Part shown: positions 5,324-43,514 of the stretch, in pieces
Numbering within the stretch: the stretch's first letter is position 1
How the letters are laid out: each line of letters starts with the position of its first letter
NCBI GenBank assembly: GCA_017990495.1
Contig: JAGNNV010000004.1
Span: 3,003-50,728, forward strand
Length of the DNA: 47,726 nucleotides
Reading direction: 5' to 3'
Origin: Vicinamibacteria bacterium
GTDB lineage: Bacteria > Acidobacteriota > Vicinamibacteria > Fen-336 > JAGNNV01
Program-made: the position numbers and the translations under genes
Notes under the pieces: generated by a model
The model's input: the letters and a program-made list of their open reading frames with translations, nothing else
Told to the model about the DNA's origin: nothing
Databases searched by the model: none

Positions 5324-6819
<1,496 letters not shown>

Positions 6820-6823
<4 letters not shown>

Positions 6824-9185: not shown

Positions 9186-9196
9186 CGAAGCCCAGG

Positions 9197-9910: not shown

Positions 9911-9923
9911 GGCGGCGGTCTGC

Positions 9924-11162: not shown

Positions 11163-13228
<2,066 letters not shown>

Positions 13229-13411
13229 GGTCTTCTTGGACGATACGCCCGAGCGGTTTCCCCACAGCTCTTTGTTTCATGATTCGTTGGAACCATCGGG
13301 GCGTCGTGGCCGGCGACTTACCGTGGAGGTCGAGTGCGGAAGATCTTGACTGCGGCGTTACACTAGCAATGCGGGGAACGTCGTAAATCCGTCGCCATGA
13401 GGAGGTTGAGC

Positions 13412-15289: not shown

Positions 15290-15292
15290 GTC

Positions 15293-21733: not shown

Positions 21734-23146
21734 ATGGCGATTGGGCCTTCGATACTTCGCATCGGGGTGGTAGATCCCGTCGGCGCCATCGACCCTCGCA
21801 ACATGGCCGAGGCCACCACCATCCTCCTCGCGCGTCAGGTCTTCGAAACGCCCTTCCAGGCCTCGTCGACCGGCGACGCCATCCCCGCGCTCTTCAGCGA
21901 GAAGCTCGTCGAAACCCCGGGCAGCGGTGGTTTGAAATTCTCCACCACCGTGCGCACCGATGCGCGCTTCAGCGACGGGTCGCCCGTGACTCCGGAAGAC
22001 GTGGTGGGAGCGCTGGCTCAGGATCCCGTCTTCACCGGGCGCGCCACCGCCTCTTACCGCGATGGCCGTGTGCACCTCACTCTCTTCGCGCCCAACACCC
22101 GCTTCGATCTCTTCCTGACCATGTGCGGCATGCTCTATCGCCAGAACGGCAGCATCCTCCTCGGATCGGGCCCCTTCATGATGGGCACCTCCGATCGCGA
22201 CGTGGTGCGCCTGGTGCGCAACCCCCACGCACGAACGGTCTCGAAGATCGAATCGATTGAAGTCAGGCAGTATCCGGTAGACGCTCAGACCGGACGACCG
22301 ACCGCCCTGCTCGCCGCCCTCGAGAAAGGTGAGGTCGACCTGGCTCCGCGACTCTCCTGGCGTGACGTCAATCTGCTCAAGAGCACCGCGGTGGTGATGA
22401 AGCCGGTGAACTCCACGTGCATGCTCTACATCAACACCGAGCGGCTCAAGGACGTCCGCCTTCGCGGCGCTCTGGCCAAGGCCGTGGACCGAACCGTGGT
22501 GGCTGAACTCGCCTTCGGAGAGAACCCTCTGGCCTTCCGCGCCACCGGACTTCTGCCGCCAGCGCTGGGCAAAACCAACGATCGTCTGGTGCCCGACCTC
22601 GAACGGGCGCGCACCGAGTGGCAGGAGGCGGGCGGCTACGACAAGCCCATGACCATCCTCTACTCTCCCGCGCCCAGGCCCTACCTTCCCGCACCCGCGG
22701 CGGTGGGCAAACACCTCCGTGACCGCTTCAAACGACTCGGCGCCAACGTGGAGGCGGTGGAGGTCTCGTCGGGCGAGCTGATTCAGAAGGTGAACTCAGG
22801 GGACTACGACCTCGCTCTCATGGGCAACATCCCGGACAGCCCTGATCCAAGCGACTATCTGTCCGCGGTGGTGGGATCGGACGCGGTGCCTCAAGGCGTC
22901 GAAGGCGCGTCGTTCGCGTTCAACTTCTCGCGTTACCGGAGCCGCGAAGTCGACGATCTCATCGCCAACTACCGCAAGGAACGCCGTGAGGAAACCCTGG
23001 GCGAAATCGGTCTGCTGCTTGGCCGCGATGTTCCCCTGGTGCCCCTCATGTACGGTCGCGCGTGTGTGGCCCACGCCTGGCGGCTCCGCGGCTTCCAGCC
23101 CACGGTCACCGGCCTCGTCGACATCTCAGCTCTCAACCTGACCTGA
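21734..23146 (+). CDS. Family-5 (peptide/nickel, DppA/NikA-type) solute-binding protein homolog without signal peptide
   Basis: Overall SBP_bac_5-like sequence (FSDGSPVTPEDVV, INTERLKDVRLRGALAKAVDR). An in-frame TAG at 21722-21724 prevents any N-terminal extension. No adjacent permease or ATPase genes. Confidence 0.7.
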   Translation: MAIGPSILRIGVVDPVGAIDPRNMAEATTILLARQVFETPFQASSTGDAIPALFSEKLVETPGSGGLKFSTTVRTDARFSDGSPVTPEDVVGALAQDPVFTGRATASYRDGRVHLTLFAPNTRFDLFLTMCGMLYRQNGSILLGSGPFMMGTSDRDVVRLVRNPHARTVSKIESIEVRQYPVDAQTGRPTALLAALEKGEVDLAPRLSWRDVNLLKSTAVVMKPVNSTCMLYINTERLKDVRLRGALAKAVDRTVVAELAFGENPLAFRATGLLPPALGKTNDRLVPDLERARTEWQEAGGYDKPMTILYSPAPRPYLPAPAAVGKHLRDRFKRLGANVEAVEVSSGELIQKVNSGDYDLALMGNIPDSPDPSDYLSAVVGSDAVPQGVEGASFAFNFSRYRSREVDDLIANYRKERREETLGEIGLLLGRDVPLVPLMYGRACVAHAWRLRGFQPTVTGLVDISALNLT

Positions 23147-23201
23147 AGTGTGAGCCGCTAGCTTCGCGGCGCGGTTGAGCAGATAGTTCCGCTCCGGGAG
23201 G
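23118..23201. repeat. Direct repeat copy A (about 84 bp) flanking the ADOP gene
   Basis: Covers the last codons plus stop of the SBP gene and a fossil copy of the sigma-factor 3' end. It pairs with 25786-25870. The first 29 nt are identical, the central ~16-17 nt have diverged with a 1-nt indel, and the last 39 nt carry 2 mismatches. Confidence 0.85.
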
Positions 23202-23202
23202 G

Positions 23203-25719
23203 TCAGTCGGCTCGCAAGGCGACCACCGGGCTCACGCTGGTCGCCCGGCGCGCCGGCAGCCACGCCGCGCCCAGGCTCGCGCCAAGCAGGAGAAGCGGGG
23301 CGATGACGAATGTCGCCGCGTCGAACGCCCCGACGTCGACGAACAGGCTGTCCATCAGCCGTCCCATGCCGACGCCGAAGACGAGGCCCAGCGCGACGCC
23401 GCCTCCGCCGAGGGCCAGCCCTTCCCCGATCACCATTCGTCTTACGCCCGCCGGACTCGCGCCGATAGCGAGACGAATTCCGAACTCACGCGTCCTTCGA
23501 GCCACCGCGTAAGACATCGAGCCGTAGATCCCGACTACCGCGATCATTGTCGCGAAGAGCCCGAGGGTCAGGAAGAGCGTCGAGCTCACGCGTAACAACC
23601 AGAACTCGAGCGACCCCGCCACATGCTGCGCGAACGTCACGGCCTTGAAAGCAGGCAGGCCGGGTGCTATCGCCCGCACCTCGTTCTGCACCGCCTCGAC
23701 CAGGTGCGTAAGGGCTCCCGCCGAGTGCCCGCGAACCTGGAAGAAAGCGTCGCCGCGGAAACCCTGAGCGAAGGGCACGTAAACCCCATTCGTCTCCCCT
23801 TTATCGAAAGCATCGTCGCGGGTGGCCGAGACGATTCCGACGATCTCCGCCGGACCGGTCTCGACCGGCTTCGAACCCGTGGCCTGAAACTCGATCGATC
23901 GCCCAAGCGGCTCGCCGTCTGGGAAAAGGCGCCTCGAAAGCGCCTCGTTGATGACCACCACGCGTCGATTCCCGGAATGCCGGGCTTCCGCGTCCGTGAA
24001 CCCGCGCCCGCGCAACACCTTCATGCCCATGGTGCCGAAGTACGACGCGCTGACCGCATTCCAACGCGCGCCGAGGGCCTCGACTTCCGGGCGTGAAGAG
24101 GTCGCGCGCACGTACCGCCCCTCGTTCATTGTATGAAACGGCACGAAGGCCGCGAGACTCGCCGATTGTGCTCCGGGAATCGCTTTCAGTCGATCCTCGA
24201 TCACGCCATAAAGCGCCAGGGCCTCGGGCTCCTGGAGCCCCGCGAGCCCCGCGTCGACCTCGATCATCACGGTCTGCGTGGCGTCGTATCCAAGATCCGC
24301 GGTGTTCGCCTGCCGCGCCATCTGCACGAACAGGCCCGCGGAAATGAGCAGACTCAGGGAAAGGGCGATCTGGCCCGACACGAGCGGATTCCGCGGAAGG
24401 AAGCGCGAACGCCGGGGCGGCGCCTCGTCGCCGGCCTGCTGCTTGAGATCCGTCAGCACGCTCGCTCCCGAGTGTCGAAGCGCCGGCCCAAACGCGAACA
24501 TCAGCGTCGCCATCACGGAGAACACCGCCGTCCCGACGACCATCGCGGGAGGCGTGCCGAACTCGAGGGCAAGCGAGAAGGGCAGACGATCGAGCAGCGT
24601 AGCGGCGAGGCCGTTTACCGCATACATCCCAAGCGCCGCGCCCACCGCCCCACCCACCACAGAGAGAATCAGCCCCTCGGTGACGAACTGCCGCACGATC
24701 CGCGCCCGACCACCGCCCAGGGCGAGCCGGATCGCGAACTCGCGCCGTCGCGACTGGCCGCGAGCCAGGAACAGCGAGGCCAGGTTCAGGCAAACGATCA
24801 GCAGTACGGATCCCGTCATACCGAGCATCGCGAAGGCCAGCGTCATCACCGCACCCTCCTGGGGTGGGGCGTTGCTCAGAACCATCCGAGGCGCCGGGCG
24901 CGCGAAGAAGTCGGCGCCGCGATACTCGACGGGAAACCTTCGCTCCACCTCCGCGGCGGCCAGGCTCAGGGCCGGACCGGCTCCTTCCGGTGTGATCCCT
25001 TCCTTCAGGCGACCGATCAGCGTCAGGGTGAATCGATCGGGCCTCTCGAGCTCGCGCCTCGTGGACGGTTCCGCTCGATTCTCGATGGAATCAAGAACGC
25101 CGAGCGGCAGGAAGATTTCCGGCCCGAGGAGCACGTTCGCCCCCATGAATCCCTTGGGCGTGATCCCGACAATGGTGAAGGGCCGGCCGTTGACGCGGAC
25201 ACTTCGCCCGACAAGATCAGGGTCCAGGCCCGCCCGTTTCCACAGGCCGTAGGAGGCGATCGCCACGGGCGCCTCCGCACCCGGCATCGTCTCCTCCTCG
25301 GTGAAGGCCCGACCGTGAGCGAGGGAGGTGCCCAGCACCTTGAAGTAGTTGGCGCTGACGAGGGCCGAAACGGTTCGCCGCGGCGTGCCCCCTTGTGCGA
25401 GATGGTCGACGCCGACGACCTGAACCTTCTGCGCGAGCACGCCGTCGAACGCATCGTCGCGGGCAGAGAGCGATTGCCACGCACCGAGGGAGAACGGGCG
25501 GAATGAGTCCGGCTCGTTGCGCGAGTGCGAGTAGATCTGCACCAGGGCCTCGGGCTGGGCGACCGGGAGCTTCGCAAAGACCATCGAGTACGAGAGGCCG
25601 AACATCGCGGCGTTGAGTCCGATGCTCAAAGCCAGAACCAGGACCGCCGACGCCGTGAACCCCGGCGTCTTCCGGAGCTGGCGCAGCGACACCTTCACAT
25701 CGTTGAGTATTCCCCTCAT
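23203..25719 (-). CDS. ADOP-family duplicated FtsX/MacB-like ABC transporter permease
   Basis: The N-terminus (LRQLRKTPGFTASAVLVLALSIGLNAAMF) and two FtsX-type 4-TM modules separated by large periplasmic domains fit the Acidobacterial duplicated orphan permease family. No adjacent ATPase. Confidence 0.85.
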   Translation of the reverse strand: MRGILNDVKVSLRQLRKTPGFTASAVLVLALSIGLNAAMFGLSYSMVFAKLPVAQPEALVQIYSHSRNEPDSFRPFSLGAWQSLSARDDAFDGVLAQKVQVVGVDHLAQGGTPRRTVSALVSANYFKVLGTSLAHGRAFTEEETMPGAEAPVAIASYGLWKRAGLDPDLVGRSVRVNGRPFTIVGITPKGFMGANVLLGPEIFLPLGVLDSIENRAEPSTRRELERPDRFTLTLIGRLKEGITPEGAGPALSLAAAEVERRFPVEYRGADFFARPAPRMVLSNAPPQEGAVMTLAFAMLGMTGSVLLIVCLNLASLFLARGQSRRREFAIRLALGGGRARIVRQFVTEGLILSVVGGAVGAALGMYAVNGLAATLLDRLPFSLALEFGTPPAMVVGTAVFSVMATLMFAFGPALRHSGASVLTDLKQQAGDEAPPRRSRFLPRNPLVSGQIALSLSLLISAGLFVQMARQANTADLGYDATQTVMIEVDAGLAGLQEPEALALYGVIEDRLKAIPGAQSASLAAFVPFHTMNEGRYVRATSSRPEVEALGARWNAVSASYFGTMGMKVLRGRGFTDAEARHSGNRRVVVINEALSRRLFPDGEPLGRSIEFQATGSKPVETGPAEIVGIVSATRDDAFDKGETNGVYVPFAQGFRGDAFFQVRGHSAGALTHLVEAVQNEVRAIAPGLPAFKAVTFAQHVAGSLEFWLLRVSSTLFLTLGLFATMIAVVGIYGSMSYAVARRTREFGIRLAIGASPAGVRRMVIGEGLALGGGGVALGLVFGVGMGRLMDSLFVDVGAFDAATFVIAPLLLLGASLGAAWLPARRATSVSPVVALRAD

Positions 25720-25758: not shown

Positions 25759-25785
25759 AGGAGGTCCCCAGTGAAGGAGGTCCCC
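25757..25785. repeat. Tandem 13-bp direct repeat GAAGGAGGTCCCC x2, 16-nt period
   Basis: Identical copies at 25757-25769 and 25773-25785, inside the 66-nt cassette-specific leader of the ADOP gene. Confidence 0.8.
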
Positions 25786-25870
25786 TCGACATCTCAGCTC
25801 TCAACCTGACCTGAGCTTCGAGTCCGCGAGTTTCGCGGCGCGGGTGAGCAGATAGTTGCGCTCCGGGAGG
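25786..25870. repeat. Direct repeat copy B flanking the ADOP gene
   Basis: Contains a fossil of the SBP gene's last codons plus TGA (..LDISALNLT*) and the functional 3' end of the sigma-factor gene. Confidence 0.85.
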
Positions 25871-27072
25871 CTCGCGGTTTTGCCGGCGGCGGCGCGGTAG
25901 TGCCCGATGGCTTTGGCCGGATCGCCGGCCCTTTCGTACAGGTGTCCCCGAACCGCGTCCAAGCGGTGGTGGCCGGAAAGGCCCCCATCACCATCGAGCG
26001 CTTCCAGAAGCCGCAGTCCCTCGCGAGGGCCGTGCACCATGGCCGCGGCGATGGCGTGGTTGAGGGCGATCATGGGGTTATCCGACATCCGTTTGAGCAG
26101 ACCGTACAGCGCGAGAATCTGAGGCCAGTCGGTGTCCTCAGGACGAGCCGCTTCATCGTGCACGGCGGCGATGGCGGCCTGGATCTGATAGAGGCCCACC
26201 GTCCCCAAGGCCAGGGCTCCGGTAATGAGGCGCACGCCTTCGTCGATGAGCGTCTTGTCCCACAAACCTCGGTCCTGTTCCTCGAGCGGAATGATCTCGC
26301 CGCTCGCTCCGGTGCGAGCGCGGCGCCGGGCATCGGTGAGCAGCATGAGCGCCAGCAGTCCCTTGACTTCCGGGTCTTGCGGGATCAGTTGATGAACCGC
26401 CCGGGTCAGCCGGATGGCCTCGTGAGCGAGTTCGACACGCTGTAAGTCGGGACCGACGCTGCTCGCGTAACCCTCATTGAAGATCAGGTAGAGCACATGG
26501 AGCACGGCGCCCAGCCGCTGCGCGCGTTCGGCTTCAGTGGGCTGGGCGAAGGAGGCCCCCGCGGTTTTGATGCTTTGTTTCGCCCGGCTGATCCGCTGGG
26601 CCATGGTTGCTTCCGGAACCATGAAGGCGTGGGCGATCTGGGCCGTGGTCAAACCGCCCACCGCGCGCAAGGTGAGCGCGATGGCGGAGGGCGTGCTCAA
26701 CGTCTGATGGCAACACATAAAGAGCAGGAGCAGTGTGTCTTCGCGCTCGACCTGCGCGGGGGCATCAATGGATGGCGACCACGATTCGTCGGACGCGGAC
26801 AACGTGAAGACCCGGCCCTCGCGACGGCGGCGAGCGATCTCGCTCCGCACATGGTCGGTGAAACGCCGCGTGGCCACCTGGATCAGCCACCCTCCGGGGT
26901 TTTCGGGGAGGCCTTGTTCGGGCCACTGAAGGGCGGCGGCGAGAAGTGCTTCCTGCACCGCGTCTTCGGCGGAAGCAAAGTCGCCGAACCGACGGACCAG
27001 AGTCCCAAGCACCTGCGGCGCGAGTTCACGCAGCAGGTGCTCGGTCGCCGCGTCGAGCCGCGCCGCCGTCAC
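25801..27072 (-). CDS. ECF-type sigma-70 factor with ~230-aa C-terminal (TPR-like) extension
   Basis: Sigma-2 region EDAVQEALLAAALQWPE..GWLIQVATRRFTDHVR. Sigma-4 region LTLRAVGGLTTAQIAHAFMVPEATMAQRISRAKQSI. Long helical C-terminal domain. The GTG start overlaps the YCII gene stop (GTGA). Confidence 0.8.
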   Translation of the reverse strand: MTAARLDAATEHLLRELAPQVLGTLVRRFGDFASAEDAVQEALLAAALQWPEQGLPENPGGWLIQVATRRFTDHVRSEIARRRREGRVFTLSASDESWSPSIDAPAQVEREDTLLLLFMCCHQTLSTPSAIALTLRAVGGLTTAQIAHAFMVPEATMAQRISRAKQSIKTAGASFAQPTEAERAQRLGAVLHVLYLIFNEGYASSVGPDLQRVELAHEAIRLTRAVHQLIPQDPEVKGLLALMLLTDARRRARTGASGEIIPLEEQDRGLWDKTLIDEGVRLITGALALGTVGLYQIQAAIAAVHDEAARPEDTDWPQILALYGLLKRMSDNPMIALNHAIAAAMVHGPREGLRLLEALDGDGGLSGHHRLDAVRGHLYERAGDPAKAIGHYRAAAGKTASLPERNYLLTRAAKLADSKLRSG

Positions 27073-27467
27073 TCCGTGGGAGGCGGGCCGCTCATGACCT
27101 GGCGCACTTCGATGGCCATGTTGAGGGGCGCGCCGCCCCGTCCGGGCGCCGCCGAGGCCCTCGCCGCGATTTCATACGCGCGTTCGGTGGTGGGCACGTC
27201 GACGATCCAGTAGCCGGCCAGGAACTCCTTGCCCTCAGCGTAGGGGCCATCGGTGACCGCGGGAGCGCCTGCTTTGCCGGCGCGCACGATCCTTGCCTCA
27301 TTGGGACCGGCCAGACCCTCGGCCGCCGCCAGCTCGCCGTTCTTCCCGAGTTCCTGGCTGAAGGCGATCATGAAGTCGATATGGGCCTTGATGTCCTGGG
27401 GCGGCCAGTTCTGGATCGCCCACTCGCCGGCCGTCCGCGGAGCGTGCATCATGAGCATGTATTTCAT
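27069..27467 (-). CDS. YCII-related (YciI/DGPF) domain protein
   Basis: MKYMLMMH.. N-terminus and the DGPYAEGKEFLAGYWIVDV motif are characteristic of YCII-like proteins. Confidence 0.8.
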   Translation of the reverse strand: MKYMLMMHAPRTAGEWAIQNWPPQDIKAHIDFMIAFSQELGKNGELAAAEGLAGPNEARIVRAGKAGAPAVTDGPYAEGKEFLAGYWIVDVPTTERAYEIAARASAAPGRGGAPLNMAIEVRQVMSGPPPTE

Positions 27468-27492
27468 TTCCCTGTCTGTCCTCTGGTTTTGG

Positions 27493-27514
27493 GAAGCGCC
27501 AGGATCGGCGCTTC
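27493..27514 (-). promoter_or_regulatory. Perfect 8-bp stem hairpin GAAGCGCC-aggatc-GGCGCTTC in the YCII/sigma leader
   Basis: Located 26-47 nt upstream of the YCII start codon (27467). Confidence 0.3.
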
Positions 27515-27668
27515 ATGGGTCAGTCGAAGCCGCGGCCGGTTTCTCGACATGCCTTGGCGGATCTTAGGGAAAAGTGGTCGGTGAAGGCCGAAGGGGGCAT
27601 TTGGTGCCCAACGGGGCCGGGCGTATTGTTGCCGGACGCAGGTCTTGGCCACAAGGAGGGCGAAACCC

Positions 27669-28121
27669 TTGAAGCAACTGAAAGCGATGTTCCTCATTCC
27701 CCTGTTGGCGGCGGGTTGCGGTTCGTCACCGGCCGCGCCGAGCGCCACCACGCCCGTGCCCGCGGGGGCGCCGCGAGTCGGCCTGAGCATGGGCCTCCTG
27801 GTGTCGCCGTCCGGAGCCTCTGGCTTTACCGCACCTACGTCCCTGACTCTCCAGATCCAGTCGCGCGGCACACCCGTGCACGTGGAGACGGTGAGCTACC
27901 GAATGCTGGACGCGCGGGGGCAAGTGCTGGTCGAGGCGTTCATCGACACCGCTACCGCCGGGAATTCCGACCCGAGCCGGTACGTAAGCGGAGGCACGAT
28001 CGTCCAGACTCTTTCCTGGCCGGCGGAGCGCGGCACGGGTGCAAGGATCGATGTCATCCTGACCTATCGCGACACGGCGGGCGTCCTCAGCACCCACTCG
28101 TTCTCGGTTCCCGCTCAGTAA
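27669..28121 (+). CDS. Hypothetical lipoprotein
   Basis: AAGGAGG at 27653-27659 precedes TTG 27669, giving MKQLKAMFLIPLLAAGC with a lipobox. The alternative start is ATG 27687. The mature part is beta-rich with no motif I recognise. Confidence 0.6.
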   Translation: MKQLKAMFLIPLLAAGCGSSPAAPSATTPVPAGAPRVGLSMGLLVSPSGASGFTAPTSLTLQIQSRGTPVHVETVSYRMLDARGQVLVEAFIDTATAGNSDPSRYVSGGTIVQTLSWPAERGTGARIDVILTYRDTAGVLSTHSFSVPAQ

Positions 28122-28195
28122 ACCGGACCTCCTTGCCTGTGCGCCGCGTGTTGCCGCGACACGCGAAGTCCAGACCCGGCTGCTAGCCTCCCGGC

Positions 28196-30232
28196 ATGAA
28201 GCCGCCGGTTGCCCGCCCCATTCCCCGAACCACCGTTTTGCACGGGGAGACCCTCGAGGATCCCTACTTCTGGCTGCGGGAAAAAGAGAATCCTGAGGTC
28301 CGCACGTACCTCGAGGCGGAGAACGCCTACGCCGACGCAGTGACGGCGCCTCTCGCCGAACTAAGCGCATCGCTCTACGACGAGATGCTGGCGCGGATTC
28401 AGGAGGATGACACCAGCGCGCCCTATCTCTTCCGCGGGTTCTTGCACCGCGTGCGGACGGAGAAAGGCCGCCAGTATCCGATTCACGAGCGTCGGCGCCA
28501 GGACGCTCCGGCCTACGCTCCGTTCGAGACCGTGCTCGACGTCAACGATCTCGCCGCGGGGCGGTCGTTCATGTCCCTGGGCGCGTGCCTGATGAGCGAC
28601 GATGGCGCGCTCCTCGCGTATTCCACCGACGACACCGGCTTCCGCCAATACCGTCTGCAGGTCAAGAATCTCGTCACCGGCGAGTTGTGGAATCGCTCGT
28701 TCGAGAAGACGATCTCCGTGGCCTGGGCCGCGGACTCCCGCACCCTCTTCTTCACCGAGGAGGACCATGCGAAACGCGCGGCGAAGCTTTACCGGGTGGA
28801 AGCCTTCACCGATGCGGAGCCCGAACTCGTTTTCGCCGAGCCGGACGAGCGATTCAATCTCGAGATCTTCCGCTCCCGCAGCGCGAAGATCCTGTTCCTC
28901 GTCACCTCCTCCCACACCACCGCGGAGTTCCACTGGAACCGAGCTGACGCACCGCGCGAGCCCTTCCGGCTGATCGCACCGCGGCATCAGGATCACGAAT
29001 ACGAGGTCGACCACCAGGGCGACCGCTTCCTCATCCGCACCAACGACCGCGGTCGCAATTTCCGGCTGGTGGAAGCGAATGTGGAGTCGCCGGATCAGAC
29101 GAACTGGCGGGAGATCGTGGCTCATCGCGATGACGTGATGCTCGAAGGGGTCCTCGCATTCGAAGACGCGGTGGTGCTGGCCGAGCGCTCGGGCGGCCTG
29201 CCCCGATTCCGGTCGCTCACGCGGGGCATCTCCGCCGGCGTGGCCGCGGCCTTCGAAGAGCCCACGTACACGGCGTTCCCCCACGACAATCGCGAGTACG
29301 CGACCACTTCCTTCCGCTACTCGTACCAGTCTCTGGTGACTCCGCCTTCGATCTTCGAGCTCGACCTGCGGACGGGGCAGAGCACGCTCATCAAGCAGAC
29401 CGCGGTGCTCGGCACGTTCGATCGAAACGACTACGTGTCGGAATGGATCTCCGCCACCGCTCAGGACGGCACCGTGATCCCTATCTCCCTGGTGCGTCGT
29501 CGCGACACACCCAAGGACGGCACGGCCCCCATGCACCTTTTGGGCTACGGCTCGTACGGTTATCCCTACCCGGTGTCCTTCGTCTCGCACCGGCTGTCGC
29601 TGCTCGATCGGGGTTTCGTCATCGCCCTCGCCCACATTCGCGGCGGCGGCGAGCTGGGCAAACCATGGCACGACGCCGGACGCATGGGCACGAAGATGAA
29701 CACCTTCACCGACTTCATCGCCTGCGCGACCCATCTCATCGATGCGGGCTACACCTCGAGCACACGTCTCGTCATCGAAGGCGGTTCGGCGGGCGGCCTG
29801 CTGATGGGCGCGGTGATCAACCTCCGCCCCGACCTCATGAAAGCGGTGATCGCCAAGGTGCCCTTCGTCGACGTGATCAACTCCATGCTCGACGAGGATC
29901 TACCCCTCACCGTGGCCGAGTTCGAGGAGTGGGGCAACCCCAAGCTCCTTCCCGACTACAAGGTGATGCGGGCCTATTGCCCCTACAGCAATCTCGAGCG
30001 GAAGGCCTATCCCGCGATCCTCCTGCGCAACTCGTTCAACGACTCGCAGGTGATGTACTGGGAGGCCGCCAAGTACGCGGCCCGGCTGCGCACACTCAAG
30101 ACCAACGACACGCCGCTGCTCCTCCGCACCCTGATGGACGCGGGCCACGGCGGAGCCTCCGGCCGCTACGACGCGCTGCGGGAAACCGCCTCGGACTACG
30201 CCTTCATTCTGTGGCAGGTGGGCGCGATCTGA
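28196..30232 (+). CDS. ptrB: Oligopeptidase B (protease II), S9A prolyl oligopeptidase family
   Basis: N-terminal HGETLEDPYFWLREKENPEVRTYLEAENAY. Catalytic Ser context GGSAGGLLMG. C-terminal DAGHGG. Confidence 0.88.
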   Translation: MKPPVARPIPRTTVLHGETLEDPYFWLREKENPEVRTYLEAENAYADAVTAPLAELSASLYDEMLARIQEDDTSAPYLFRGFLHRVRTEKGRQYPIHERRRQDAPAYAPFETVLDVNDLAAGRSFMSLGACLMSDDGALLAYSTDDTGFRQYRLQVKNLVTGELWNRSFEKTISVAWAADSRTLFFTEEDHAKRAAKLYRVEAFTDAEPELVFAEPDERFNLEIFRSRSAKILFLVTSSHTTAEFHWNRADAPREPFRLIAPRHQDHEYEVDHQGDRFLIRTNDRGRNFRLVEANVESPDQTNWREIVAHRDDVMLEGVLAFEDAVVLAERSGGLPRFRSLTRGISAGVAAAFEEPTYTAFPHDNREYATTSFRYSYQSLVTPPSIFELDLRTGQSTLIKQTAVLGTFDRNDYVSEWISATAQDGTVIPISLVRRRDTPKDGTAPMHLLGYGSYGYPYPVSFVSHRLSLLDRGFVIALAHIRGGGELGKPWHDAGRMGTKMNTFTDFIACATHLIDAGYTSSTRLVIEGGSAGGLLMGAVINLRPDLMKAVIAKVPFVDVINSMLDEDLPLTVAEFEEWGNPKLLPDYKVMRAYCPYSNLERKAYPAILLRNSFNDSQVMYWEAAKYAARLRTLKTNDTPLLLRTLMDAGHGGASGRYDALRETASDYAFILWQVGAI

Positions 30233-30247
30233 GCCGTTCAAGAGGAT
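30199..30247. repeat. Direct repeat copy A (about 47 bp): functional 3' end of ptrB plus 15 nt
   Basis: The 35-nt core TTCTGTGGCAGGTGGGCGCGATCTGAGCCGTTCAA has 1 mismatch to 32092-32126. The flanks align with a 3-nt indel. Confidence 0.85.
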
Positions 30248-30578
30248 CCGCACCCGCGCTCTTCGACTTCTGCGATACGGAACGCGTTTCGCTCCTTCTA
30301 CGGAGCGCTGCCTGTTTCCGGGAAGAACAAGATCGCGAATCGACGTGGCGGCATCCACCTGGTCCCGCTTCATCTCGGCCGCTCGGTGGGTACGGACCTT
30401 GTCCAGACGCTGTTCGCATCGCCGAAGGCAATCAGCACTTCGCCAGCGAGCTTTGAGTCGGGCATGATATTTGACTCCGCACGATGTGCTGGTAGTTTGC
30501 GCTGGTGAACGTGCATGGGCAGCGGGTGGCAATGATCGAAAGTGGCCGGTCCAAGTGTCGGACCGCGCGGTGGTCGGC
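30248..30578. other. About 330 nt with no convincing ORF (possible decayed gene or divergent promoter region) at the left end of the inserted segment
   Basis: Only short, frame-broken minus-strand ORFs are present, for example MPDSKLAGEVLIAFGDANSVW.. from 30464. GC looks lower around 30450-30520. Confidence 0.4.
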
Positions 30579-31382
30579 ATGAACACCCCGCCACGATCCG
30601 CAGCGATCGTCACCGGCGGTGGTCGCGGCATTGGCAAGGCGATCGCAACGAGACTCGCAGGTGCACAGGCGGTCGTGGTGGTGGGCCGAACGGAAGCGGA
30701 TCTGCGGCAGGTGTGTGCCGAAATCGCCGCAATGGGCGGAATGGCGGTGCCCTGCGCAGGCGATGTCGCCGACCCGACCACTGCCATTTCCGCACTGTCC
30801 CTCCTGCGCGCCCAGGGCTGGTCGCTGGGGCACCTGGTCTGCAACGCCGGGATCGGCAAGAGTGGTGCCACCGAGTCCCTGGACAGCGGCGCCTGGACGC
30901 GGGTGTTCGAGGTCAATGTGCACGGTTGTTTCCACATGGTGCGCGCTTGCTTGCCGGAGCTGATGGTTCAGCCGGGCGCGGCGATCACCATCATGAGCAG
31001 TCTGGCGGGCGTGCGCGGTGTCGCCTTCGATGCGGCCTATACCGCGAGCAAGCATGCGCTGGTCGGCTTCGCACGCGCACTGGCACTGGAATACCGCAAG
31101 CATGGGCCGTCGGTGGCCGCGCTGTGTCCCGGATTTGTCGAAAGCGAAATGACCCAGCGAACGATCCGCGGCGTGATGCGGCGGCAGGGGCTCGACGAAG
31201 CGCAGGCCCGTCAGCGCATCGCCGGCCGCAGTCTCGCGGGGCGCATTCTGGCGGCGGAGGAAATCGCCGAGGCCGTGGCGCTGCTCGGCGCGCAGCAGTT
31301 CGCTGCCGCCCGAGCACTGGCCGAACGCGGTGGCTATCCGATGGTCGGCAGCCCCGAACTTCAGTCCGAGGACCTTCCATGA
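30579..31382 (+). CDS. Short-chain dehydrogenase/reductase (SDR)
   Basis: AAIVTGGGRGIGKAI cofactor motif, NAGIG, and a YTASKHAL catalytic Tyr-x3-Lys. ATG 30579 chosen within track ORF 30471..31382. Confidence 0.85.
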   Translation: MNTPPRSAAIVTGGGRGIGKAIATRLAGAQAVVVVGRTEADLRQVCAEIAAMGGMAVPCAGDVADPTTAISALSLLRAQGWSLGHLVCNAGIGKSGATESLDSGAWTRVFEVNVHGCFHMVRACLPELMVQPGAAITIMSSLAGVRGVAFDAAYTASKHALVGFARALALEYRKHGPSVAALCPGFVESEMTQRTIRGVMRRQGLDEAQARQRIAGRSLAGRILAAEEIAEAVALLGAQQFAAARALAERGGYPMVGSPELQSEDLP

Positions 31383-32065
31383 GTGCGTTGGACGCCCGCC
31401 TGCAGGTGATCATCGACTGGATTCGCGAGCGCACCGATGTCGAGGCCGGACGCGGTGCGCTGGTCCCCGTCAGTGGCGGCTCGGACAGTGCCCTGGGTTT
31501 CTGGCTATGTGCGCAGGCGCTGCCGCCGGGTCGCGCCATCGGCGCCTTCGTGGGCAGCGGGTTGCGTTGTCGTGGATGGTTCGAGCAATTCGGCCCGGTT
31601 CGGCTGCTGCCCGAACCGCTGGTCTCAAGCCACATCGAGACCACGCGCTGGGCCATGATGTTGTCCCTGTCCCTGGACGTGCGTGGCTGGCTGGTCGGCA
31701 CCCGCAACCGCACCGAAGATGTCTTTGGCACCTACAGCCTGGCCAGTCGCGTCGCCACCCTGTTGCCACTGGTCGGGTTGTGGAAGAGCGAAGTAATGGA
31801 ACTTGCGCTGGGCGTAGGCGTGCCCGCAGAAATCCTGGAGTCCAGTCAACGCGCCGATCCCAGTTGTGGCCGGCCGCAGGCGATGGCTGATATCCCGTTT
31901 GAGACGATCGACCGGTTCCTGCAGGTTCGATTGGGTGAACGCGCCGAGTCCGATCTCGACGCCATTGCGCCGGCGACCGTCGAATATCTGGAGTCGGTTT
32001 ATCGGCGCAATCGGTTCAAACAGGCATTGCCGTTGTCTGCACCGGGATCGGCCCGCCGCAGCTAA
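31379..32065 (+). CDS. PP-loop ATP pyrophosphatase, short NadE (NH3-dependent NAD+ synthetase)-like
   Basis: SGGSDS PP-loop in ALVPVSGGSDSALGF. GTRNRTEDVFGTYS and PLVGLWKSEVMELA blocks resemble NadE. ATGA overlap with the SDR stop. Only ~228 aa. Confidence 0.65.
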   Translation: MSALDARLQVIIDWIRERTDVEAGRGALVPVSGGSDSALGFWLCAQALPPGRAIGAFVGSGLRCRGWFEQFGPVRLLPEPLVSSHIETTRWAMMLSLSLDVRGWLVGTRNRTEDVFGTYSLASRVATLLPLVGLWKSEVMELALGVGVPAEILESSQRADPSCGRPQAMADIPFETIDRFLQVRLGERAESDLDAIAPATVEYLESVYRRNRFKQALPLSAPGSARRS

Positions 32066-32086
32066 CCCGCGCACGGCGACAGCGTG

Positions 32087-32132
32087 CGCCTTTCTGTGGC
32101 AGGTGGGCGCGGTCTGAGCCGTTCAAAAGAAT
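32087..32132. repeat. Direct repeat copy B: fossil ptrB 3' end (..AFLWQVGAV*)
   Basis: Retains a reading frame and TGA equivalent to the ptrB terminus. Lies 22 nt after the NadE-like stop. Confidence 0.85.
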
Positions 32133-32247
32133 GGTTGCGCGGGACCGCGGGAGGTCCTATCCTCCCGCCCCAATTGAGGGCGGGGCTCTTCCTGCTGCTT
32201 GTGTAATCACGGGGCTTAGGGCCCATCCAGAAGGAGAAAAGAGAGAA

Positions 32248-32589
32248 ATGCGCGTTAAGAAGACGTTCGTGATGGCTGCTGTCCTGCTCCTGCTGAGCTT
32301 CACTCCCGGTTTCGCCAAGTCCCTCGAGGACTACAAGTTCAAGGTGTACAACAACACCAAGGTCCGCATCAAGCAAATCCTCGTCTCGGAGAACGGCAAG
32401 AAGTGGGGTTTCTTCGACGTGGGCAAGGGCATCGCCGCCGGCGCCACCACTGAGCTCGTGTGGGACTCCTCAACCGACAACGACGGCTGCGAGTGGTACT
32501 TCAAGGCGGTTTGGGCCGATGGCGATGAGTCCGATCCAGCGCAGTTCGACTTCTGCGAAGAGGGCCTGGTCATCGAATTCAGCAAGTAG
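32248..32589 (+). CDS. Small secreted protein of unknown function (113 aa)
   Basis: Strong RBS GAAGGAGAAAAGAGAGAA before ATG 32248. Signal peptide MRVKKTFVMAAVLLLLSFTPGFA. Beta-rich mature part with 2 Cys. Confidence 0.7.
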   Translation: MRVKKTFVMAAVLLLLSFTPGFAKSLEDYKFKVYNNTKVRIKQILVSENGKKWGFFDVGKGIAAGATTELVWDSSTDNDGCEWYFKAVWADGDESDPAQFDFCEEGLVIEFSK

Positions 32590-32665
32590 TCCGGCAAGGC
32601 TGTGGTCGGCGGCAAGACCGGCGCTAGAGTCTGGGTCGCGAACGACAAAAGGAGTCACGCCACCC

Positions 32666-34651
32666 ATGCTGATCACAGCCTCCCTCGTTTTCACTCTGGC
32701 CGCCGCCCCCCCCGCCTTCACCGCCAAGGACCTTCACGGGCTCAAACGGCTGGCCGACCCCAAGATCTCCCCCGACTCGAGCTGGGTGCTCTACCAGCAG
32801 ACCACGATTGAACTGGGGAAGGGTCGCAACACCGACCTCTTTGTGATGCCGGCCGAAGGCGGAGCGCCTCGCGCCCTGACCTCGCACCCCAAGGCGGATT
32901 CCCAGGGCCGGTTCTCGAAGGACGGGCGTCAGATCGCCTTCCTCTCCTCGCGCGACGGCGCGCCCCAGATCTACCTGCTCGACCTTGCGGGCGGCGAGGC
33001 CCGGCGAGTGACCCACCTCTCGCAGGGCGTCTCCAACTTCCGATGGGCCACCGCGGACAAGCTGGTGGTGATCACCGACGTTCATCCCGCGTGCACCGGC
33101 GCCGACTTCGACACTTGCACCAAGAAGAAGGTGGAGGAGAAGGGCGAGGGCGTCCGGGTCTACGACAAGCTCTTCGTCCGCCACTGGGACACCTGGGAAG
33201 ACGGTCTGCGGTCGCACATCCTCTGGGTTGACGTGAAGACCGGCGAGGCCAAAGACCTCACCCCGGGCGACGCGGACGTGCCCCCTTATCCCGGGCCCAA
33301 CGACTTCGACGTGTCGCCGGACGGAACGGAGGTCGCCTTCGGCCGCAACGACGACAAGGACGAATCCGCTTCAACCAACGCAGACATCTTCGTGGTCCCG
33401 ACATCGGGCGGTGCAGCGAAGAAGATCGGTTCCGCCCCCGGTTTCGACGGACTGCCCGTGTACAGCCCGGACGGTTCCATGATCGCCTACCACGCGCAGT
33501 TCCGCGCGGGTTTCGAAGCCGACCGCTGGCGGCTCATGGTCTACGACCGAAAGAGCGGCGCCACCAGGAATCTGACCGAGTCCTTCGACCGCAGCGTGGA
33601 TGAGATCGCCTGGTCGCCCGACGCGAAAACCATCTACTTCACCGCCGGCGACGGTCCGCAGAACCCTCTCTTCTCCATCCCGGCCGCGGGCGGCGCACCG
33701 CGCAAAATCGCGGAAGGTCACCTCACCCAGCTCTCGATCGCAAGCGACGGGAAGCGCGCCATCATGGCCCAGGACGCGCTGCACAAGCCCGCGGACATGG
33801 TGAGCGTCGATCTCGCGAGCGGAAAAATCACCCGGCTCACCACGACAAACGATGAAGCTCTCAAGCCCTTCGCGCTTCTGCCCGGCGAGTCCGTCACCTA
33901 CACCGGTTCCCTGGGGAAGAAGGTCCAGGCCTGGGTGGTCAAGCCGGCCAATTTCGACCCCACGAAGAAGTACCCCCTGCTGATGTTGATCCACGGCGGG
34001 CCCCAGGGTGTTTGGGGAGACTCGTGGAGCAACCGCTGGAATCCCCAATTGTTCGCGGCCGCGGGCTTCATCGTTTTCGCGCCCAACCCGCGCGGCTCCA
34101 CCGGCTTCGGCCAGGCTTTCACCGACGACGTGACGAAAGACTGGGGCGGCAAGGCCTACGAGGACATCATGAAGGGCGTCGATTTCGCGGGCGCCCTGCC
34201 TTATGTCGACAAGGACCGGGTGGTGGCCGCGGGCGCCTCCTACGGCGGCTACATGATTAACTGGATGTGCACCCAGACCAAGCGCTTCAAGGCCTTGGTC
34301 TCGCATGACGGCGTCTACGACCTCGAGTCGATGGCCGGCTCCACCGAGGAGCAGTGGTTCACCGACTGGGAGTTCGGCGGACCGCCCTGGAAGGATCGCA
34401 CTCAGTACGAGAAGTATTCGCCTTCGCGTTTCATCGCTCAGTGCACCACCCCCACCCTCATCATCCACAACGACCGCGACTACCGGGTGCCGGTGGAGCA
34501 GGGCCTGCAGATGTTCACGGCTCTGCAACGTCAGAACGTGCCCTCGCGTCTTGTGATGTTCCCCGAGGAGAATCACTGGGTGCTCAAGCCCGAGAACTCC
34601 GTGCGCTGGTACGACGAGGTTCTGGGCTGGCTCACGAAGTGGTCGAACTGA
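32666..34651 (+). CDS. S9-family serine peptidase (acylaminoacyl-peptidase / dipeptidyl-peptidase-like) with N-terminal beta-propeller
   Basis: Short signal peptide. Repeated propeller blades (SPDG..). Catalytic Ser context GASYGGYM. C-terminal HNDRDYRVP and ENHW motifs. Confidence 0.85.
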   Translation: MLITASLVFTLAAAPPAFTAKDLHGLKRLADPKISPDSSWVLYQQTTIELGKGRNTDLFVMPAEGGAPRALTSHPKADSQGRFSKDGRQIAFLSSRDGAPQIYLLDLAGGEARRVTHLSQGVSNFRWATADKLVVITDVHPACTGADFDTCTKKKVEEKGEGVRVYDKLFVRHWDTWEDGLRSHILWVDVKTGEAKDLTPGDADVPPYPGPNDFDVSPDGTEVAFGRNDDKDESASTNADIFVVPTSGGAAKKIGSAPGFDGLPVYSPDGSMIAYHAQFRAGFEADRWRLMVYDRKSGATRNLTESFDRSVDEIAWSPDAKTIYFTAGDGPQNPLFSIPAAGGAPRKIAEGHLTQLSIASDGKRAIMAQDALHKPADMVSVDLASGKITRLTTTNDEALKPFALLPGESVTYTGSLGKKVQAWVVKPANFDPTKKYPLLMLIHGGPQGVWGDSWSNRWNPQLFAAAGFIVFAPNPRGSTGFGQAFTDDVTKDWGGKAYEDIMKGVDFAGALPYVDKDRVVAAGASYGGYMINWMCTQTKRFKALVSHDGVYDLESMAGSTEEQWFTDWEFGGPPWKDRTQYEKYSPSRFIAQCTTPTLIIHNDRDYRVPVEQGLQMFTALQRQNVPSRLVMFPEENHWVLKPENSVRWYDEVLGWLTKWSN

Positions 34652-35724
34652 AGGCCCTCGAACTCGCCGCGAGTCTCGGTCACGAAGAAGTCATCCTTCT
34701 TCATGACCGGGAGTCCGGCTTGCGCGGGGCCATCGCCATTCACGACTCGACGTTCGGCCCCAGCGTCGGGGGCACACGGATGCGCGTTTATCCGAGCTAC
34801 GACGAGGCGATCGTCGACTCCCTTCGTCTCGCTCGGGCCATGACCTACAAGGCGACCATGGTCGAGATGCCTTATGGCGGAGCCAAAGCCGTGATCATGG
34901 GCGACCCGGGTCGGGACAAGAGCCGACCGCTGCTCGTGGCCTACGCGAAGGCGGTGGATCGTCTTGGCGGCCGCTTCTTCACCGGCTGCGACATGGGCAT
35001 CGAGCCGCGCGATCTCAAGGTGATGCAGCGCCACACCAAACACCTGTCGCACGCGAAAGAAGATTCGCCCATCGACACTTCCTACCTTGCGGCTCTGGGT
35101 GTGTTCGAGGGCATCGCCGCGGCGGCCGCGGTTCTCGGGCGGGATTTTTCCTCCCTGCGTGTGGCCATCCAGGGCGTGGGTGCGGTGGGTCTGCGTCTCG
35201 GCAAGCTCCTGGCCGAACACGGCGTCTCGCTGGTGGTGGCCGACACCGACAAGGCGCGGACCGTGCGCGCGGCCCGCGAACTCGAAGCGCAGGTGGTGGA
35301 ACCCGAGGCCATCTACGACGTGGAAGCCGACGTGTTCTCCCCAAACGCCATGGGGGGCATCCTCAATGACGACACCATCGCCCGTCTCAAAGTCCATGCC
35401 ATTGTGGGCGGGGCCAACGAACAGCTTCAAGAACCGCGGCACGGAGACGTCCTCCACTCCCTGCGCATCCTGTGGGGGCCCGACTACGTGGTGAACGCTG
35501 GCGGACTGTTGAGCCTGCTCTACGAGACCAAACAGGCGGACGAGGCTGGTGTGGAGGAGCGTGTGAGAATGATCGGGCCGCGCCTCGCCGACATCTGGCA
35601 GCGGTCCGAGGAAGAAGAAGACGCCCCCGGGGTCATCGCCGATCGGATCGTCGAGGAACGCCTCGCCCTCGGACGGCGGGCCAGGTCGGAATCGGTGCGC
35701 AGGACGAAGTACGAAGACGACTGA
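34639..35724 (+). CDS. Leucine/valine/phenylalanine dehydrogenase family (Glu/Leu/Phe/Val DH)
   Basis: GLRGAIAIHDSTFGPSVGGTRM and YGGAKAVI catalytic-Lys region, plus Rossmann IQGVGAVG. GTG 34639 overlaps the peptidase 3' end by 13 nt. Confidence 0.8.
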   Translation: MVELKALELAASLGHEEVILLHDRESGLRGAIAIHDSTFGPSVGGTRMRVYPSYDEAIVDSLRLARAMTYKATMVEMPYGGAKAVIMGDPGRDKSRPLLVAYAKAVDRLGGRFFTGCDMGIEPRDLKVMQRHTKHLSHAKEDSPIDTSYLAALGVFEGIAAAAAVLGRDFSSLRVAIQGVGAVGLRLGKLLAEHGVSLVVADTDKARTVRAARELEAQVVEPEAIYDVEADVFSPNAMGGILNDDTIARLKVHAIVGGANEQLQEPRHGDVLHSLRILWGPDYVVNAGGLLSLLYETKQADEAGVEERVRMIGPRLADIWQRSEEEEDAPGVIADRIVEERLALGRRARSESVRRTKYEDD

Positions 35725-35741
35725 AGAAAGAGCAGGGCCCC

Positions 35742-36530
35742 ATGCAACAGATCACTATCGGCGGTGTCGAAATTCAATACGCCGACAAGGGTCAGGGCCC
35801 ATCGGTTCTGTTCCTGCATGGCTTCCCGCTCTCTCTTGCGATGTGGGATGCCCAGGAGGCGCTTTCCGATCGTTATCGGATCGTGCGCTTCGATGCCCGG
35901 GGCCACGGCGGCTCCGGCGTGGGTGACTCAGCGCTTTCGATGGAGCGCATCGCCGATGACGCCGCGGTCCTTATCGAACAACTGCGTCTCGGCCCGGTGA
36001 TCCTGGTCGGTTGCTCGATGGGCGGCTACGCCGCGTTCTCCTTCGCCCGCAAACACGCGGCGCTCTTGCGCGGTCTGGTTCTGGTCGACACGCGCGCCGG
36101 CGCCGATTCCCCGGAAGCGCGCACCGGCCGTGGTGAACTCGCGGCCAAGGTGATGAAGGACGGCGCGCAACCCGCCCTCGATGCCTTCCTGCCCAAGGTC
36201 GTCGGGGACACCACCAGGAAGTCCCGGGCCGACGTGGTGGTGAAGGTCAAGGACATGATTCTGGCGACACCGCCGCGCGGCATCTCGGACGCCTTGCACG
36301 GCATCGCAGCCCGGCCGGACTCCACACCCTTCCTTCGCGAGATCGCTGTTCCCACTCTGGTGGTCTGTGGCGAGGAAGACGTGATCACACCGCGAGCGGA
36401 AGCGGAGATTCTCCAGAAGGGTATCAAGGGCGCCGAACTCGCCATGATCCCGATGTCGGGCCATCTCCCCTCGATGGAAACGCCGGAAGAGTTCAACACG
36501 ATCCTCCGCGCCTTCCTCGCCCGGTTCTGA
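35742..36530 (+). CDS. Alpha/beta-fold hydrolase
   Basis: LFLHGFP, nucleophile elbow GCSMGGY, and a C-terminal SGHLP His motif. Confidence 0.8.
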   Translation: MQQITIGGVEIQYADKGQGPSVLFLHGFPLSLAMWDAQEALSDRYRIVRFDARGHGGSGVGDSALSMERIADDAAVLIEQLRLGPVILVGCSMGGYAAFSFARKHAALLRGLVLVDTRAGADSPEARTGRGELAAKVMKDGAQPALDAFLPKVVGDTTRKSRADVVVKVKDMILATPPRGISDALHGIAARPDSTPFLREIAVPTLVVCGEEDVITPRAEAEILQKGIKGAELAMIPMSGHLPSMETPEEFNTILRAFLARF

Positions 36531-36686
36531 TCTCATACAGCGCTGAGTCCCGCGAGAAGCGCTCGAACCGTTGCGGCCATCGAGGCCTGAAGAAGAGACG
36601 GTATTCTTCCGAATTCTCGGGATGTGTGGGGACGGCCGCCCGCTGGAAACGGCCGAGTTGTTTCACGCAGCTTTCGGAGGAGCAGA

Positions 36687-37511: not shown

Positions 37512-37555
37512 GCCAACAGCCTGGCGGTCTGCGGCGAGGAAGAGGTGACTCAAAC

Positions 37556-42728: not shown

Positions 42729-43514
42729 ATGAGACCCACCGCCACCGCCACCATCTCTTTCGGAATGGTCTCCATTCCGGTCAAGCTCTTCTCCGCCACC
42801 GAGAGCAAGGCCTCGATCTCCTTCAACATGCTGCACGAGAAGTGCAAGGGTCGGGTGAAGCAGCAGTACATCTGCGAGCGCGACAACAATGAAGTGGTCC
42901 CGCGCACCGAGATGGTGAAGGGCTACGAATTCGCCAAGGACCAGTACGTCGTCTTCACCCCGGACGAGATCAAGAAGATGGAGGAGGAGAAAACCGGCCT
43001 CGTCGACATCGCGGAGTTCCTCGACATCAATCTGGTCGACCCCGTGTACTACGAGGGCGCCTCGTACCTCGCTCCCGACAAGGGCGGCGAGAAAGCCTAC
43101 CGACTTTTGTGCGACGCCATGAAGAAGACCGGCCGGGTTGCGGTGGCGCGCTGGGCGGCCCGGGGCAAGCAGTACCTGGTGCTTTTGCGCCCGCTCAAGA
43201 ACGTGATCATCCTCCAGCAACTGCGGTACCCCGACGAAGTACGCGCGCTCGATGAGGTTCCGGTGGGCACGGCCGAGTCCAAGGAGAACGAACTCAAGCT
43301 CGCGGTCCAGCTCATCGATCAGATCACCTCTCCCGCCTTCGAACCCGCGCAGTACGAGGACGAGGTGCGGAAACGCATGCAGGCCGCGATCGATCGGAAG
43401 ATCCAGGGCCAGGAGATCGCGAGCGCCCCCGAACAGCCGCGCGCCCAGATCATCGACATCATGGAGGCCCTGAAGGCATCCCTGGCCGCCCGGAAGGGCG
43501 ACCTCGTCAGCTAG
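42729..43514 (+). CDS. ku: Ku protein (non-homologous end joining)
   Basis: ISFGMVSIPVKLFSAT and VKGYEFAKDQYVVFTPDEI are hallmark bacterial Ku segments. Confidence 0.9.
   Translation: MRPTATATISFGMVSIPVKLFSATESKASISFNMLHEKCKGRVKQQYICERDNNEVVPRTEMVKGYEFAKDQYVVFTPDEIKKMEEEKTGLVDIAEFLDINLVDPVYYEGASYLAPDKGGEKAYRLLCDAMKKTGRVAVARWAARGKQYLVLLRPLKNVIILQQLRYPDEVRALDEVPVGTAESKENELKLAVQLIDQITSPAFEPAQYEDEVRKRMQAAIDRKIQGQEIASAPEQPRAQIIDIMEALKASLAARKGDLVS

Follow-up and report, generated by a model that had tools for sequence, protein, structure and literature searches.

Bacterial chromosomes can gain DNA together with a long direct duplication of the target, a process described as insertion with long target duplication (Nobusato, Uchiyama, Ohashi & Kobayashi, Gene 2000; Furuta, Abe & Kobayashi, NAR 2010, PMC2853133). 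In Haemophilus influenzae, 46-bp repeats reach 2-15 bp into the 3′ end of a flanking gene, and elsewhere the duplications run from 30 to >400 bp (PMC2853133). The published screens sought restriction-modification cargo, and the authors linked it to DNA breaks that the cargo makes (PMC2853133); a later paper included 'other DNAs' and named tandem duplication plus recombination as an alternative (PMC3457768). Here we describe an insert that carries genes for an SDR and a NadE-like protein and lies between two copies of the 3′ end of the oligopeptidase gene ptrB in a contig of a Vicinamibacteria species (Acidobacteriota). The 47.7-kb stretch of this contig that was analysed, hereafter the window, is the part of the genome covered by our examination. 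The foreign DNA was very probably inserted without a dedicated recombinase and with a long target duplication, which supports the insertion reading of a first-pass annotation as essentially right. The locus is a well-resolved new example of a known, mechanistically unexplained and rarely documented form of gene gain, and not a new kind of mobile element. Of the mechanism proposed in that annotation, the repeat-bounded insertion without a recombinase was retained, but it is not new, as it matches published long target duplication.

The locus shares with the published cases a block of a few kilobases that is present in some relatives and absent from others, and that is bounded by repeats of >30 bp, of varying length, each of which aligns to a single-copy target. 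The insert (1.84 kb) is smaller than 20 kb and contains no mobility genes, no tRNA lies at the repeat, and the geometry of the repeat at a gene 3′ end is almost the same as in H. influenzae. Restriction-modification cargo was a screening criterion of Furuta et al. 2010 rather than a mechanistic requirement, and the cargo here lies outside that criterion. The differences are the SDR and NadE-like cargo (with an ADOP permease gene next door) in place of restriction-modification genes, a soil Acidobacterium as host, and a junction relic that suggests a longer duplication, later trimmed.

Two further kinds of insertion resemble this locus in part. Integrase islands in gene 3′ ends and their derivatives (cis-mobilisable elements, CIMEs, and pseudo-SCC elements) carry repeats that are att cores, are reused and are associated with conserved ends. 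As at ptrB, the direct repeats of such islands regenerate the 3′ end of the target, and some island derivatives lack a recombinase of their own; however, no recombinase, att reuse or conserved ends were found at the ptrB insert. In Sinorhizobium meliloti, non-homologous end joining (NHEJ) captures heterologous DNA at chromosomal double-strand breaks (Dupuy, Sauviac & Bruand, NAR 2019, PMC6379672, where Popa et al. 2011 is cited for such capture). NHEJ capture is similar in being independent of homology and recombinase, in the Ku-encoding host, in the arbitrary ends of the insert and in the lack of mobile-element features, but the S. meliloti I-SceI junctions had small deletions and no long target duplication was reported (PMC6379672). 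A eukaryotic likeness is gene transposition through double-strand-break repair, for example of transposed genes in Arabidopsis (PMC2869330), where non-transposon genes are reported at new sites between repeats attributed to break repair.

The target gene (28196-30232, plus strand) encodes a ptrB-like S9 oligopeptidase B of 678 aa (Pfam Peptidase_S9_N and Peptidase_S9; NCBIfam oligopeptidase B, E=7e-171), whose orthologues in relatives show 76-97% aa identity. Its 3′ end falls within the left repeat, R1 (30199-30247, plus strand), which consists of the last 11 ptrB codons, the stop codon and 15 nt downstream. The right copy, R2 (32087-32132, plus strand), is a fossil with a 3-nt deletion. Local alignment of the two gave 43 identical bases among the 46 aligned and one 3-nt gap (CAT absent from R2), so that the repeat coordinates and indel proposed in the first-pass annotation were exact. 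A 35-nt core (30207-30241) recurs at 32092-32126 with the single mismatch claimed for it; a search of the window found no third match at ≤3 mismatches, and none of 100 shuffles gave any match. Within the 47.7-kb window, the repeat, R, has two copies only. An open reading frame (ORF) ending at 32117 translates as ...CAFLWQVGAV-stop, which bears out the AFLWQVGAV-stop reading of the fossil copy. At 49 nt (R1) or 46 nt (R2), the duplication is longer than the 30 bp used to define long target duplication.

R1 is continuous with ptrB, as in an empty relative (L109, below), and leaves the gene intact; R2 keeps the ancestral continuity to the downstream spacer, as in L109, L094 and L097. The insertion thus appears to have left ptrB unharmed. 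Contigs nearly identical to the window were present in the metagenome-assembled genomes (MAGs) GCA_018063445.1 and GCA_020050275.1 and in many metagenomes, and the order repeat, insert, repeat was recovered in >14 independent contigs from NCBI, ENA, JGI and Logan assemblies. Because all of these independent assemblies agree, the arrangement is real; misassembly, which the first-pass annotation had named as a possible refutation, was not borne out.

An empty site, consisting of ptrB, a single R and a gene for a small secreted protein, had been predicted and was present in L109, L097-L101 and L102. L109 is a 198.7-kb groundwater contig with ~92% nt identity to the window and without the insert. 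Window positions 25760-30240 and 32094-36531 align to one contiguous stretch of it, and the two alignments overlap by 32 nt (L109 5847-5878), which is the single repeat copy. Both window repeats therefore align to one single-copy sequence, and in the multiple alignment R1 runs on from ptrB while R2 runs into the ancestral spacer (GGTTGCG...). That spacer (32133-32247, plus strand) contains GC-rich hairpins and is homologous to the spacer after ptrB in L109 and L097. The insert is also missing from L097-L101 and L102, where the small secreted protein is 84% and 73% identical in aa, respectively; in L097 and L102, both flanks are similar to the window. These alignments show that the ancestral state was ptrB, one R, spacer and small gene, and that in the derived state a copy of R flanks the insert on either side. 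The insert is carried by L094, which is ~95-96% identical to the window. As L094 is filled and L109 is empty, the insertion can be dated between the splits from these two lineages.

Both the insert and the small gene were missing from 13 other Vicinamibacteria species (ptrB 76-82% aa identity), in which a second S9 peptidase gene starts 40-100 nt after ptrB; in one of them an MFS gene is found instead. The small secreted-protein gene of the window (32248-32589, plus strand; 113 aa, no Pfam family) is, judged by this distribution, itself an older lineage-specific insertion. Downstream of it, the second S9 peptidase gene (32666-34651, plus strand) has a conserved position to the right of ptrB throughout the family, and a conserved motif upstream of this gene is still visible in the window at ~32624. 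The family backbone can be written as SBP, a variable segment, ptrB, a second variable segment and S9 peptidase. The MFS gene (L017 10006-11253, minus strand) encodes a 415-aa transporter and faces ptrB in convergent orientation, with an overlap of ~29 nt at the ptrB 3′ end. A separate observation concerned L075, a Terriglobales MAG, in which dispersed ~47-nt direct repeats of REP-like character (3264-14004; many copies, 94-100% identity) surround a ptrB homologue; these are unrelated to the ptrB insertion.

We then considered the content of the insert. ORFs and domain searches confirmed that the ~1.84 kb between the repeats comprises an ORF-poor stretch, an SDR gene and a NadE-like gene. The SDR gene (30579-31382, plus strand) encodes 267 aa with an adh_short match (E=1.6e-47) and scored under every NCBIfam equivalog cut-off. 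The second cargo gene (31379-32065, plus strand) encodes a NadE-like PP-loop ATPase of 228 aa with an SGGSDS motif (NAD_synthase, E=2e-14, 53.7 bits). Its start overlaps the SDR stop codon (ATGA), which predicts translational coupling. Only the C-terminal half of the protein aligns to NAD synthetases, the best PDB match being an NH3-dependent NAD synthetase (E=7.6e-10), and its scores fell below the nadE cut-offs (TIGR00552, 50.9 bits vs 63.65; PRK13980, 58.6 vs 255). On these scores, cargo gene 2 is best regarded as a divergent PP-loop relative and not as a demonstrated NadE. Most of its 169 homologues adjoin an SDR gene, and the pair forms a conserved two-gene module. One homologue, P0090 (353 aa), is a natural fusion of the SDR and NadE-like domains, the one such case among the homologues, which supports a functional coupling of the two genes. 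A defence-system cargo was rejected, as PADLOC gave no match to it.

The non-coding parts of the insert are less uniform. No credible gene lies in the 331 nt at 30248-30578. Within them, the left part of the foreign DNA (30282-30457) had no homologue in any fetched locus by blastn, tblastx or tblastn, and it is dispensable, since it is deleted in L094. It holds a 31-aa ORF on the minus strand (30370-30465), and position 30465, the start of this ORF, aligns with the start of a divergent 189-aa gene in L095; the ORF is probably the decayed 5′ end of the neighbour gene that stood divergently in the donor. The ORF-poor stretch as a whole was rejected as a remnant of the 189-aa gene, because tblastn found nothing and only the start position coincides. 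It was likewise rejected as a set of remnants of downstream window genes left by native tandem duplication and deletion, because the 35-nt relic described below was the only such remnant found. We also noted that the ptrB TGA stop is followed by 90 in-frame sense codons (30233-30502, plus strand; ~0.72 GC at third codon positions, GC3); this open frame is probably due to chance in GC-rich DNA or is the wobble signature of a decayed gene stub on the minus strand.

The region directly upstream of the SDR gene (30458-30578, plus strand) aligns with L095 over its first ~80 nt (30458-30539) at 73% nt identity. Judged by this alignment, it came in with the cargo, and it is a likely promoter or leader; no sigma-70 consensus was found in it. 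The right end of the foreign DNA is a terminator-like hairpin that straddles the R2 junction (32069-32089, plus strand), with a 7-bp stem containing 6 GC pairs followed by CTTTCTGTGG. The 3-nt deletion in R2 (32087-32096) changes CCTTCATTCTG to CCTTTCTG, giving a longer T-rich tail after the hairpin stem. No terminator-like site was detected between ptrB and the SDR gene. The SDR/NadE-like pair would form an operon that lies downstream of ptrB in the same orientation and has its own upstream region.

The tetranucleotide comparison called for in the first-pass annotation showed that the insert deviates strongly from the rest of the window (r=0.858 vs 0.934±0.020). Only 0.4% of sliding windows were as low, and the insert was the most deviant 1.84-kb segment of the window. 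The foreign DNA correlated with the non-homologous flanks of L095 (0.922) and L104 (0.899) and less with its own window (0.845), whereas native 1.8-kb window pieces showed the opposite pattern (0.937±0.016 with their own window, 0.790±0.046 with the L095/L104 flanks). Codon usage was less telling. The claim that A/T-ending codons are commoner in the cargo held against the two flanking peptidase genes (GC3 of 0.77 for SDR and 0.75 for NadE-like, vs 0.85 and 0.87), but both values lie within the range of the window (0.70-0.89). With codon log-likelihood z scores of -0.9 (SDR) and -2.2 (NadE-like), codon usage was too weak to serve as a discriminator and was set aside.

The earlier suggestion that the SDR/NadE-like pair be sought in other taxa also proved fruitful: four unrelated contexts contain it, namely those of L095 (GCA_031425695.1), of L104, of L105 and of a fourth contig. 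Nucleotide homology to L095 extends over 30458-32040 at 80% and includes the 121 nt upstream of the SDR gene, whereas in L104 (83%) and L105 (72%) it is confined to the coding region. From composition and homology we conclude that the insert was in all likelihood acquired horizontally from an L095/L104-like lineage. All contigs that encode the identical NadE-like protein share one context, so that nothing points to a second copy in the species that could have been the source. An intragenomic origin was accordingly rejected, as there was no second context for the identical protein and the tetranucleotide signature is foreign.

No vehicle for this transfer was detected. Pfam searches and precomputed annotations for all window genes gave no integrase or transposase, and no recombinase was found in the insert, for which the first-pass annotation had noted none, or elsewhere in the 47.7-kb window. 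The window also contained no tRNA or tmRNA and no match to Rfam families, and no terminal inverted repeats were found at the insert ends. R was absent from the viral contigs searched, and the cargo was absent from the viral contigs and plasmids searched. The pairs in L095, L104 and L105 had no flanking repeats, no R-like sequence and no conserved cassette ends; they share genes only, and a mobile cassette with conserved ends was therefore rejected. A DNA transposon, insertion sequence or miniature inverted-repeat transposable element was rejected for the lack of terminal inverted repeats and transposase, and because the duplication is 46-49 nt vs the 2-15 bp expected. We consider it highly likely that the locus is the scar of one horizontal acquisition and not a self-mobile element.

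The left junction retains a relic of the event. Directly abutting R1 are 35 nt copied from the 3′ part of the small secreted-protein coding sequence (relic P, 30247-30281, of which 30248-30281 lie beyond R1; plus strand; source 32530-32564). P is identical to L109 6283-6317 at 31 of 35 positions, including an exact run of 23 nt, and to the small gene of the window itself at 24 of 29. At positions that have since changed in the functional gene of both the window and L094, P retains the ancestral (L109) bases. The derived order is thus R, P, foreign DNA, R, spacer and small gene (containing P), and the microhomology at the R1-P junction is ≤1 nt. P may stem from a ~480-bp duplication, from R through P, whose left copy later lost ~397 bp, a reading that we place just short of an even call. 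A ~49-bp duplication in which P is a templated patch also fits.

In L094, the same junction has decayed further. Window positions 30226-30518 are missing there (L094 7100-7200), a 293-nt deletion with GC/GGGC microhomology (2-4 nt) at the junction. The deletion removed the ptrB stop codon, relic P and part of the foreign DNA; as a result, ptrB of L094 encodes 687 aa, with nine new codons at the C-terminal end, and the SDR start lies 24 nt beyond the new stop. This deletion shows that decay at this junction is real.

A second case of the same architecture, claimed in the first-pass annotation for an ADOP permease gene, proved to be real. This gene (23203-25719, minus strand) is bounded by repeats at 23111-23204 (R′a) and 25779-25873 (R′b). 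R′a, the left copy, holds the functional 3′ end of an SBP gene and a fossil sigma-factor 3′ end. In R′b, the right copy, the SBP 3′ end is the fossil, and the ECF sigma-factor gene (25801-27072, minus strand) has its functional 3′ end there. The duplicated segment of about 95-115 bp corresponds to the overlapping 3′ ends of the convergent SBP and ECF sigma-factor genes, both of which were kept intact. The R and R′ sequences are unrelated, and the two duplication events lie 7 kb apart. Because the ADOP duplication is common to L094 and L115/L109, it is the older of the two events. When 1.25 Mb of fetched loci were scanned, the other Vicinamibacteria loci (including L014-L027, L097, L102, L109 and L115) gave no further such repeat pair. 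The proposal of a recurrent mechanism is based on these two events in one lineage.

We propose that foreign chromosomal DNA of ~1.8 kb (30282-32086) entered the short spacer behind ptrB by a recombinase-independent, illegitimate and target-duplicating process. The fragment would have consisted of the decayed stub of a divergent gene, a promoter region, the SDR gene, the coupled NadE-like gene and the terminator hairpin. The original duplication may have been ~480 bp long, reaching from R across the spacer and through most of the small gene as far as 32564, and loss of ~397 bp from the left copy would have fused R1 to the 35-nt relic P. Such a duplication could have arisen in double-strand-break or fork repair, either by end joining between two sister copies that had broken differently, the foreign fragment being captured in the process, or by microhomology-mediated template switching. 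A Ku gene, encoding the end-binding component of NHEJ, lies in the window outside the insertion (42729-43514, plus strand; PF02735, E=1.2e-50) and is mentioned as context only; its GC3 (0.889) exceeds that of every other window gene, and its codon usage is the most typical. Its presence makes end-joining capture plausible, although as the actual route we hold Ku-dependent end joining to be no better than a tentative suggestion.

Relic P and the repeat length also bear on two other ways of forming this structure. The duplication may have been ~49 bp from the start if two nicks, one in each strand, were filled in and the foreign fragment was ligated between the ends, P being filler copied from ~400 bp downstream. 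The near absence of microhomology (≤1 nt) at the R1-P junction agrees with such a short staggered break and patch, as do the 46-bp duplications documented for this kind of event (PMC2853133) and the presence of Ku in the window. However, the ~95-115-bp ADOP duplication and the published ones of >400 bp are hard to obtain from staggered nicks alone. We also know of no documented case in which bacterial end joining added a templated 35-nt filler from 400 bp away, and we regard this explanation as doubtful. A Campbell-type event, in which a circle of the foreign fragment joined to a recipient piece (R to P) integrates by a single RecA-dependent crossover, would accommodate relic P. A duplicate-insert-duplicate order is the exact product of a single crossover, as in laboratory insertion-duplication, and ~480 bp of homology is efficient for RecA. 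Nevertheless, it requires a prior, unexplained joining and circularisation of foreign and recipient DNA, and no plasmid or viral relative of the cargo or R was found; we think it quite improbable.

Two further explanations fared worse. In a non-autonomous island of the cis-mobilisable or pseudo-SCC-like type, a recombinase acting in trans would have used R1 and R2 as attL and attR in the ptrB 3′ end. Direct repeats that restore a gene 3′ end are typical of integrase-mediated islands, and the 35-nt core is nearly identical between the copies. Yet there is no recombinase in the window, homologous cargo elsewhere has no conserved ends, R-like sequence or flanking repeats, R and R′ are unrelated, relic P is not accounted for, and the R1/R2 differences fit divergence after a true duplication. 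The other occupants found downstream of ptrB, a small sample made up of the small gene and the L017 MFS gene, also lack R repeats, and no flanking repeats of any kind were found at the MFS gene, which occupies the same intergenic spot; site-specific integration is accordingly very improbable. It is more improbable still, to the point of being barely credible, that there was no insertion, either because the segment is ancestral and other lineages lost it or because the repeat misled the assembly. Precise excision by recombination between R1 and R2 could produce what looks like an empty site, and the dating is too coarse to decide this for L109. However, the site is empty in three nested outgroup lineages, the segment is missing from 13 more distant species, its composition is foreign, and the >14 independent assemblies agree.

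Several points weigh against the proposed target-duplicating capture or parts of it. The ~480-bp duplication is deduced from one 35-nt relic, which a templated filler patch explains equally well. By a rough count, neutral changes since the duplication amount to ~8-9 in 97 nt per branch, about half of the intergenic divergence between the window and L109, and the event would thus lie close to the window-L109 split; the empty site of L109 could be a secondary loss by R1 x R2 recombination. No ligD was found in the 47.7-kb window, and none adjoins the Ku gene. Codon usage of the cargo is by itself no outlier, and the donor is known only as an L095/L104-like lineage. Finally, the observed product would result from end joining, template switching or Campbell-type integration alike, and sequence data do not tell these apart.

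The surroundings contain further differences between the lineages. The L115/L109 genome has an extra block of 8,322 nt between the ADOP gene and its right repeat (L115 11470-21413 plus L109 1-1443), with genes for a Phd/PIN toxin-antitoxin pair and for PqqD-like, JmjC, AMP-binding and MBOAT proteins; its junction, at window 25760/25761, has no flanking repeats. In L094, a 1,968-nt insertion (14139-16106) replaces 33 nt (window 37518-37550) and holds a Gp49/HI1420-type toxin-antitoxin pair and a 115-aa ORF, with no flanking direct repeat. A comparison of window ~13311-13320 with L115 2021-2375 showed that the window lacks hypA, which lies upstream of the [NiFe]-hydrogenase genes in the related genome; as its last ~15 nt remain, hypA was deleted in the window lineage. 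No long duplication was found at any of the lineage indels checked (the L094 1,968-nt insertion, the L115/L109 8,322-nt block, hypA and the L017 MFS gene).

Taken as an example of gene gain, the locus combines four parts: an empty site, a filled site, a decaying derivative and a donor-context type. Most bacterial accessory genes have no visible vehicle, and this locus provides a clean, dated example in which foreign metabolic genes entered a compact chromosome without a recombinase and with the flanking genes intact. No new biochemical function is revealed by it. It extends insertion with long target duplication to cargo other than restriction-modification systems and to Acidobacteriota, and relic P places a constraint on the mechanism. 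Because the cargo is metabolic and not a restriction-modification system, a host process is likely to lie behind the duplication, which argues that host repair or replication, not the cargo, makes it. A more general view, which we think unlikely on present grounds, is that long-target-duplication insertion is a host-driven route of gene gain in Ku-bearing soil Acidobacteria, acting through end joining or fork restart on any cargo and without restriction-modification breakage, and that P records a sister-chromosome duplication of several hundred bp that was later trimmed. If such a host-driven route were true, a phenomenon that has stood unexplained for 25 years would become mechanistically tractable.

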